DNA of 64,000 nucleotides from Escherichia phage E26. The notes below the pieces were generated by a model. It did not search any database. It saw only the letters and a program-made list of their open reading frames with translations, and was not told the DNA's origin. Where the stretch lies: the sequence record MN655998.1. The stretch is one strand, 5' to 3'. The translations under genes and the position numbers were made by a program. Below are positions 16,134 to 16,862 of this stretch, piece by piece (position 1 is the first letter of the stretch; each line of letters begins with the position of its first letter).

Positions 16134-16532
16134 TTAAGCCAGTCGAGTGAGTTTATAAATTGTTTTAAAGCATAGAGCTTTGATATCGTCTAAAACACTC
16201 TGTAACGAGCTATCAACATCATTATAAATCTCACTAGCCATTTGCGTTAACTCTTGCAAATAGGCAATTTCGCTAATCTCCTTGCGGACGACCAACTTTG
16301 GCTGATAACGACCAGTGATCCCAATATTGGTTTCAGTGAAATTATCAACCAATTCTTGCATTTCAAGATAGAACTCTTCTAGAGCCTTATGTTTTGCATA
16401 AGATCCAGGACCAGTTACCCCAAAATGCGCAGAATGCATATAAGTAACACTCATCAGACATTCACCGATAAAGCGGTCAACTTTATTAGCCTTTCCCTCT
16501 TCGGAAGTCTTTAGAAAATCACTGAATTTCAT
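16134..16532 (-). CDS. Dps/ferritin-like four-helix-bundle protein
   Basis: AHFGVTGPGSYAKHKALEEF matches Dps signature AHWxxxGxxFxxxHxxLDxF; ATG at 16532 with GGAGAA RBS. Confidence 0.55.
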   Translation of the reverse strand: MKFSDFLKTSEEGKANKVDRFIGECLMSVTYMHSAHFGVTGPGSYAKHKALEEFYLEMQELVDNFTETNIGITGRYQPKLVVRKEISEIAYLQELTQMASEIYNDVDSSLQSVLDDIKALCFKTIYKLTRLA

Positions 16533-16821
16533 GTTCTCGATTCTCCATATTATGCAACAGAACAAATTGTTGTGCGGCATATCCCCCCATAATAAAACAC
16601 TGCCTAGAATCCATACATTTACTACGAGCATACATCTTCATAATATGGGCATGAAATTTCTGGCTGGTTTCAATGGAAGGAGATATTTTGTTTACATATA
16701 CTATCATTGCGCCGTCGAAATAATCAGTAAAGTCACCAGTTGGATCATATTGATCAGCACTGACACTTCCGACCGCAGTCAAGCATATTGCCGCTGTTAG
16801 AGTTTTACGAATAAATGACAT
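16519..16821 (-). CDS. secreted protein with N-terminal signal peptide
   Basis: N-terminus MSFIRKTLTAAICLTAVGSVSA is a classic signal peptide; ATG at 16821 with GGGGGAA RBS. Confidence 0.5.
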   Translation of the reverse strand: MSFIRKTLTAAICLTAVGSVSADQYDPTGDFTDYFDGAMIVYVNKISPSIETSQKFHAHIMKMYARSKCMDSRQCFIMGGYAAQQFVLLHNMENREHEIQ

Positions 16822-16854
16822 AAGTCATTCCCCCAGATTGAAAATATTCAGTTA

Positions 16855-16862
16855 TATTTATA
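16855..16862 (-). promoter_or_regulatory. T4-type late promoter (TATAAATA) on minus strand
   Basis: Exact TATAAATA on minus strand about 35 nt upstream of the signal-peptide ORF start. Confidence 0.55.

Follow-up and report, generated by a model that had tools for sequence, protein, structure and literature searches.

The rI lysis-inhibition operon of a Krischvirus and its predicted Dps-like protein RI.-1

The stretch of DNA analysed here, 64,000 nucleotides of Escherichia phage E26 (MN655998.1) and hereafter called the window, carries on its minus strand an exact late-promoter motif followed by two small overlapping genes. This locus was identified, with a probability of roughly three in four, as the Krischvirus form of the rI lysis-inhibition operon of T4, composed of a gp55-type late promoter, the antiholin gene rI and the gene rI.-1. 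As judged from alignments and a structural model, RI.-1 is a Dps-like four-helix bundle carrying ferroxidase ligands. The operon is already known and annotated in phages of the RB49/JSE type, and the corresponding operon of T4 was already known in the 1990s. The late promoter was also found to lie inside a predicted RNA hairpin, which would control the translation of rI.

Identity and layout of the locus

The following features make up the locus:

16890..17486, minus strand: tk, thymidine kinase (open reading frame list; annotation in JSE and other Krischvirus genomes)
16855..16862, minus strand: late promoter of the gp55 type, TATAAATA (exact motif, placement and cross-genus conservation)
16519..16821, minus strand: rI, antiholin of lysis inhibition, 100 aa (Pfam, PHROG and T4 RI matches)
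16134..16532, minus strand: rI.-1 (alias mobD.6), DUF5856 protein of 132 aa (JSE annotation and homologues)

The 1.9 kb around the locus showed 97-99.5% identity to more than 50 Krischvirus genomes, placing the source phage among the Krischvirus, T4-like coliphages of the RB49/JSE/Phi1 type. The RefSeq record of JSE annotates the same stretch as tk, rI ("lysis inhibition") and rI.-1. The order on the minus strand is tk, the exact TATAAATA, rI and rI.-1, and the first 14 nt of rI.-1 are also the last 14 nt of rI. The motif was thus present where the sequence-only reading of this DNA had reported it, at 16855-16862.

The ATG of rI lies 33 nt past TATAAATA and is preceded by the Shine-Dalgarno sequence GGGGGA (16834..16829). 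The N-terminus of the protein, MSFIRKTLTAAICLTAVGSVSA followed by DQ, has the layout of an export signal, in which two basic residues are followed by a hydrophobic core and a site of small residues. Residues 7-21 are hydrophobic, which would correspond to a signal or signal-anchor-release (SAR) segment at about residues 1-23 followed by a periplasmic domain; in T4 RI the export segment is a SAR domain. RI scored 81.9 bits (E 3e-23; cut-off 27) with the Pfam family PF24205 Antiholin ("T4-like virus antiholin"), and it also matched PHROG 1246, 'lysis inhibition', with E 2.7e-25. Identity to T4 RI was 26% (E 5e-6), with the conserved C-x5-C aligned. The solved T4 antiholin chains 6PSH, 6PSK and 6PX4 were matched as well, C-x5-C aligning with that of 6PSK. 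RI is accordingly predicted to be the periplasmic antiholin, which binds the T holin and delays lysis upon superinfection of an infected cell. The open reading frame with a signal peptide noticed earlier was therefore confirmed in its signal-like N-terminus, and the secreted partner that had been left without a name is the RI antiholin.

The layout agrees well with that of T4. There the order is tk, rI.1, rI and rI.-1, and the last three form one operon, whose late promoter is situated between tk and rI.1 (Golec et al., PMC2962797). In both phages rI comes after tk and is followed by an overlapping rI.-1, TATAAATA stands directly 5' of the first gene of the operon, and an early promoter is situated a few kb upstream (in the window, a consensus match only). 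On the other hand, the window has no rI.1, so that the late promoter directly precedes rI; protein identity is low (26% for RI, 33% for RI.-1); T4 does not have the hairpin in which the promoter of the window is embedded and the Shine-Dalgarno sequence is hidden; and the RI.-1 of the window has an insertion of three residues, GPG, by which the histidines acquire the canonical Dps spacing H-x11-H. Besides Krischvirus, the genera Tequatrovirus, Slopekvirus, Biquartavirus and Karamvirus retain the overlapping rI/rI.-1 pair, as does a Raoultella phage. The claim that a Dps-like protein lies outside the T4 repertoire was wrong, because T4 itself carries the orthologue rI.-1 directly after rI.

The promoter motif is conserved together with the genes. 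T4, JSE, W115, KP27, CC31 and M21a each have one TATAAATA per locus of 1.9-10 kb, just 5' of rI or rI.1, and this position is conserved across genera while the flanks are unalignable. No TATAAATA was found in the rI locus of Aeromonas phage 31. A search of IMG/VR with the rI protein returned a single near-identical locus; more distant relatives of the locus were taken from metagenomic contigs encoding RI.-1 homologues. Four such Krischvirus-like relatives (RI.-1 64-90% identical) have TATAAATA 32-34 nt from the rI ATG. These observations indicate that a T4-type late promoter precedes rI and rI.-1.

The rI.-1 gene and the DUF5856 family

The gene starts at the ATG at 16532, with its own GGAG ahead of it, and stops at 16134. 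A mechanical list of open reading frames gave a form of 165 aa from 16631, which was rejected as rI.-1; the 132-aa form fits all homologues and annotations. The protein contains SAHFGVTGPGSYAKHKALEEFY, the Dps signature noticed in the sequence-only reading. It has an isoelectric point (pI) of 5.4 and no signal peptide, 15 Lys+Arg against 19 Asp+Glu, and an N-terminus of mixed charge.

RI.-1 belongs to the Pfam family DUF5856 (PF19174; E 1e-20, 75.1 bits against a cut-off of 34.6) and to PHROG 858 (E 4e-43). It is 33% identical to T4 RI.-1 over the full length (BLASTP, E 1e-25). Homologues were detected in 1,422 phage records by tblastn, and an exhaustive hidden Markov model search gave 1,906 representative clusters of the family at E <= 1e-3. 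Identical proteins are already in GenBank. Annotation pipelines give the family labels such as "starvation-inducible…" or "DNA-binding ferritin-like protein". Among 185,579 species genomes the sole match was the 178-kb contig NZ_JBHSCL010000010.1 of the Flagellimonas marina assembly (RI.-1 57% identical in a narrow alignment), which probably represents the genome of a T4-like phage that was assembled along with the bacterium.

RI.-1 as a homologue of Dps

A single-sequence search of the PDB with RI.-1 returned only Dps proteins at the top, the best being Dlp-2 (1JIG; E 1e-4). Residues H36, H48, D63 and E67 aligned residue for residue with the ferroxidase ligands of Dlp-2, in the pattern H-x11-H-x14-D-x3-E. 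A profile built from 102 DUF5856 members also matched Dps proteins, with E 4e-5. The AlphaFold2 model of RI.-1 had a predicted local distance difference test (pLDDT) of 86.8 and a predicted template modelling score (pTM) of 0.81, with four long helices at residues 15-37, 44-73, 88-103 and 108-131. Foldseek comparisons of the model, against the PDB and against a viral structure library, agreed with a Dps-like fold. Structure prediction thus gave the four-helix ferritin-like bundle on which the Dps assignment depended.

The four ligands were kept in 148-149 of the 150 best family representatives, which were chosen to be at most 50% identical to one another, and the aromatic positions Y45 and Y55 of RI.-1 are conserved too. 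In these residues and in the ligand pattern RI.-1 resembles the Dps mini-ferritins (Dlp-2 of B. anthracis, 1JIG; Dps2 of M. smegmatis, 4M32). In the Krischvirus-type protein the three-residue GPG insertion falls in the A-B loop, at residues 38-43 (about 16404-16421), and produces the canonical spacing H-x11-H. A ferritin- or bacterioferritin-type intrasubunit di-iron site was also considered and was rejected, helices C and D being devoid of ExxH motifs.

Several observations weigh against a plain Dps assignment. In T4 and in most DUF5856 members the two histidines are spaced H-x8-H, not H-x11-H. RI.-1 gave no match to the Pfam Ferritin/Dps family (PF00210) at E <= 1, and only two of the 102 family members matched it, with E of about 0.02; the family is filed separately from the Dps mini-ferritins, below the PF00210 threshold. 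The protein is some 20-30 residues shorter than cellular Dps (132 against about 145-170 aa). The B-C helix, which in Dps is located at the two-fold dimer interface, was not found between residues 74 and 87 of the model, where the pLDDT was about 82-84. The Trp that stands beside the first His of Dps is Phe or Leu in DUF5856. Finally, RI.-1 is acidic and has no Lys-rich DNA-binding tail, a tail that only some Dps proteins possess. Taken together, the results show a clear homology of RI.-1 to Dps, in sequence and in predicted structure. They point to a Dps-like mode of action and to descent from the Dps lineage, although RI.-1 is not filed as a canonical Dps.

The arrangement of the ligands bears on the quaternary structure. 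As H48 and D63 are 15 residues apart on one helix, a single site made of all four ligands could be formed only across a two-fold dimer of the Dps type; by analogy with Dps structures, RI.-1 would therefore need to dimerise in order to complete the site.

Phage proteins of the ferritin superfamily have been described before, in Lactobacillus phages and in gut 'Gratiaviridae', where DPS-like proteins were proposed to limit oxidative damage during infection (PMC8008677). They share this proposed role with RI.-1. They were called canonical DPS-family enzymes, whereas RI.-1/DUF5856 is far more widespread and went unmentioned in that work (PMC8008677).

Possible function of RI.-1

The features above are compatible with the following scheme. 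RI.-1 would be a small acidic protein of the cytoplasm, folded into a Dps-like bundle of four helices, and would form at least two-fold dimers of the Dps type. H36 and H48 of one chain, together with D63 and E67 of the other, would bind and oxidise Fe(II), so that the large phage DNA pool would suffer less Fenton damage once host Dps is no longer being made. Long lysis-inhibited infections would profit most, which may be the reason for the linkage of rI.-1 to rI. RI.-1 as a dimeric, Fe(II)-oxidising mini-Dps that limits Fenton damage is plausible, but the proposal is tentative. A stronger version, in which RI.-1 is an enzymatically active, stripped-down phage Dps (a dimer or small cage) that sequesters Fe(II) and is paired with the antiholin for survival over hours of lysis inhibition, is possible but doubtful. 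Lysis-inhibited cells, heavily loaded with DNA and deprived of the host's stress response, would have to last for hours, which may account for such a pairing. It has to be borne in mind that iron binding, ferroxidase activity and oligomer formation are so far predictions for all DUF5856 proteins.

The only genetic data come from T4 and point in another direction. When rI.-1 was over-expressed from a plasmid, lysis inhibition was slightly prolonged, a synergy with rIII was seen and the toxicity of RIII was relieved (Golec et al., PMC2962797). Over-expression had no effect in a T4 rIII mutant, and RI.-1 was proposed to modulate RIII, with no mention of Dps (PMC2962797). These data tie RI.-1 to lysis inhibition through RIII and not through iron, and they count against the iron-oxidising role. 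RI.-1 might accordingly be a dedicated accessory of lysis inhibition that contacts either RIII or the portion of holin T lying in the cytoplasm, the fold serving as a scaffold and the ligands having a structural role or holding a non-catalytic metal. The dependence on RIII and the tight rI/rI.-1 overlap in five T4-like genera would fit such an adaptor. However, the published effects are small and were obtained by over-expression from a plasmid, and the residues kept in nearly all the representatives are exactly the metal ligands of Dps. Moreover, homologues with the same invariant ligands occur in PhaxI and RaK2, phages without rI, t and rIII. The homologue of PhaxI (Ackermannviridae) lies close to the primase gene and has no annotated rI as a neighbour; RaK2 has a homologue even though it is devoid of T, RI and RIII (PMC3622015). 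DUF5856 domains are also found inside large unrelated phage proteins. On this evidence an adaptor role is rather unlikely. That the ligands are nearly invariant, and that the family also occurs in phages devoid of lysis-inhibition genes, argues instead for an autonomous, metal-dependent activity of RI.-1.

Fusion of the domain inside long phage proteins was observed in 41 of the 150 best representatives (P0043-P0128; for instance P0077 with 1934 aa and P0127 with 1439 aa). Pfam and PHROG scans of 10 long DUF5856 proteins gave nothing informative, apart from a weak DUF3008 match in one of them. Similar domains were seen in the viral structure library (BFVD) in proteins named ParB/Sulfiredoxin, NUDIX hydrolase and prohead protease.

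An RNA hairpin around the late promoter

Two hairpins were predicted in the leader of rI:

16831..16870, minus strand: RNA hairpin with 5' arm CCCCGGAUU (16870..16862) and 3' arm AAUCUGGGG (16839..16831) (folding and covariation)
16813..16830, minus strand: small hairpin GAAUGAC-UUAU-GUCAUUU enclosing the rI start codon (predicted in early and late transcripts)

The loop of the larger hairpin holds TATAAATA; its 5' arm ends at the first T of the motif, and the initial four G of the Shine-Dalgarno sequence of rI fall within its 3' arm. It can form only on read-through RNA from tk. The late motif is known to occupy positions -13 to -6 relative to the transcript start (PMC1524935); the late transcript of the window is accordingly predicted to start at G16849, with a leader of 28 nt. 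The fold of the read-through RNA had a minimum free energy of -26.5 kcal/mol (z = -5.4), and none of 200 shuffled sequences was as good. The RNA starting at 16849, which has lost the 5' arm, folded weakly (-8.9 kcal/mol, z -1.7), with the G run mostly unpaired.

The helix is kept in six lineages with differing sequences, including CCCCAGAUU/AAUCUGGGG, CCCCCAA/UUGGGGG, CCUUAA/UUAGGG and CCCCAAA/UUUGGGG. In the alignment of the helix 92.6% of the cells were paired, and two of the nine pairs had changed on both sides (G-C/A-U and C-G/U-A). Against this, the covariation comes from only six sequences, and 7 of 500 shuffles reached the observed score; it is thus supportive but not conclusive. No such hairpin was found at rI or rI.1 in T4, CC31 and M21a, which also weighs against a conserved control of this kind. 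A scan of positions 15700-17000 against Rfam at a permissive threshold gave only sub-threshold chance matches (for example Phe_leader, with 25 against 55 bits) and hence no known RNA family. As for the small hairpin, it is almost invariant among the relatives, and so it offers no evidence from covariation.

The geometry recalls that of the T4 genes e, soc, 49 and I-TevI, in which the early RNA hides the ribosome-binding site, while the late RNA starts inside the structure and is translated (PMC3014915). As in those genes, the Shine-Dalgarno sequence is predicted to be paired, and the 5' strand lies at or upstream of the late promoter, so that the late RNA would be made without the inhibitory strand. 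The case of rI differs in that it rests on folding energy and a few compensatory changes in the Krischvirus-like lineage only. On read-through RNA the conserved hairpin would pair with the rI Shine-Dalgarno sequence and silence the gene; the late RNA, starting in the loop at about 16849 and devoid of the 5' arm, would be translatable, and RI would be made mainly late. The hairpin thus probably silences rI on early transcripts, and the synthesis of RI would be confined to the late period in the Krischvirus group. The T4 data, in which RI and RI.1 are late proteins of middle and early RNA respectively (PMC9697503 supplement), speak in favour of this. This would represent a new instance of a known T4 mechanism, previously undescribed for rI.

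Alternatively, the hairpin between tk and rI could be a terminator, or a stabiliser of the 3' end of the tk message, that limits the operon to its late promoter. A terminator called by ARNOLD is indeed annotated between tk and rI in Krischvirus G37-3, which speaks against translational control. Terminator-like GC hairpins were also observed immediately 5' of the late promoter of the rI operon in KP27 (locus L004, 1600-1715) and CC31 (locus L006, 1440-1530). They suggest that Slopekvirus and Karamvirus insulate the operon from early transcription in a different way from the Krischvirus hairpin, and they would be in line with a common need for insulation. Nevertheless, the hairpin would be a poor terminator, because the stem is not followed by a T run (the next letters are GGAAUGACUUAUG), and it was not reported by a consensus terminator scan. 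Furthermore, the 3' arm coincides with the G run of the Shine-Dalgarno sequence and the 5' arm abuts the promoter, which is the geometry of T4 e, soc and I-TevI. Termination or stabilisation is therefore an unlikely function of this structure, and the silencing of rI on read-through RNA is preferred.

Probable early and late transcription of the operon

One further promoter was located upstream of tk:

18964..18992, minus strand: candidate early promoter of the sigma-70 type, TTGACA-17-TATGAT, with an extended TG (consensus match only)

This candidate, a strong one, lies 2.1 kb upstream of rI. A consensus scan of the minus strand showed no terminator-like site from this promoter to 15903..15878, past rI.-1. 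In T4 an early promoter is located 3.3 kb upstream of the rI operon's late promoter (PMC2962797). The operon could thus be reached in two ways, by read-through from early promoters upstream of tk, entering through this gene, and from its own late promoter. The T4 data show different classes for the genes involved: tk RNA is early and its protein middle, rI.1 RNA is early and its protein late, rI RNA is middle and its protein late, and for rI.-1 both RNA and protein are middle, the protein having been detected in infected cells (PMC9697503 supplement). Having its own GGAG, rI.-1 may also be translated earlier in this phage, as in T4, where RI.-1 is of the middle class while RI is late. The pattern of the MotA-box middle promoter (TGCTTYA-N11-13-TANNNT) gave no match on either strand of the whole window. 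This agrees with RB49, which has no motA and no middle-mode promoters (PMC1524935). Expression of the operon is thus likely not to be solely late, early read-through being expected from the arrangement of the sites. Of the late expression claimed at the outset, the promoter itself stood, whereas exclusive late timing probably does not hold.

These results also bear on the idea that the two genes are a pair new to T4-like phages and expressed only late, namely a Dps that protects or accompanies the virion DNA and its secreted partner. The late promoter and the Dps-like fold are both credible. However, the genes are orthologues of T4 rI and rI.-1, with the antiholin as the "partner"; read-through from early promoters is likely, and T4 RI.-1 is of the middle class in RNA and protein; with its pI of 5.4 RI.-1 is acidic, and a Lys-rich tail for DNA binding is absent. 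Nothing was found that points to an association with the virion, and the role in virion DNA protection suggested by the sequence-only reading found no backing. This explanation is very improbable.

The placement of TATAAATA within the window was evaluated as well. The motif occurs seven times in the 64 kb, at 16855 and 27017 on the minus strand and at 32670, 43481, 55853, 61446 and 62299 on the plus strand, against 5.9 copies expected, which is the level of chance. All seven copies are nonetheless placed 27-33 nt upstream of an ATG that opens an open reading frame of at least 50 aa, a placement shared by 3.1% of random positions. Because of this contrast, all seven look like real late promoters. 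That the copy before rI is a chance match in A+T-rich DNA, with the genes expressed only from upstream early promoters, is hardly credible: the count would allow it, but the placement of all copies, the conservation across genera despite unalignable flanks and the documented late promoter of T4 (PMC2962797) speak against it.

The 3' end of the operon

Downstream of rI.-1 three features were recognised:

15904..16133, minus strand: 3' untranslated stretch of the operon, a deletion scar (homology to a gene of the relatives)
15878..15903, minus strand: intrinsic-terminator-like hairpin with a T run (scan; ARNOLD terminator at the same place in G37-3)
15836..15864, minus strand: near-consensus early promoter TTGACA-17-CATAAT (consensus scan)

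The scar, 230 nt in length, holds a remnant open reading frame of 44 aa (16117..15983). At this place metagenomic relatives carry an open reading frame of 707-715 aa (L011, 2923-5070; L013, 2103-4250; L017, 1921 onwards), of which residues 5-39, within the first 40 codons or so, matched the window at 16097..15993 (tblastn, E 1.8e-6). The long protein gave a weak Hoc-like match at its C-terminus. The terminator-like hairpin, a strong one, and the early-type promoter that follows it at once are predicted to separate the rI operon from the early unit that comes next.

Biological significance

A survey of 2021 reported DPS-like genes from only seven Lactobacillus phages and a few dozen gut phages (PMC8008677). 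No mention of DUF5856 was found in the literature searched. In the work on lysis inhibition T4 RI.-1 is treated as a protein of unknown function, and its Dps nature seems not to have been taken up experimentally. The homology described here provides a concrete and cheap biochemical hypothesis for a classical T4 gene. Besides, given the breadth of DUF5856, Dps-like genes are not as rare among phages as the literature would suggest (PMC8008677).

At the level of expression, the start of the Krischvirus rI gene appears to share the trick of T4 lysozyme, with a late promoter placed inside a hairpin that hides the ribosome-binding site. It would keep the antiholin off early transcripts in a group of phages without a MotA-dependent middle mode. 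If RI.-1 is an active mini-Dps, it would tie the classical lysis-inhibition locus to the management of iron and oxidative stress, and the 'mini-Dps' of T4 would be the prototype of a family of about 1,900 representative clusters that includes fusions in giant phage proteins.

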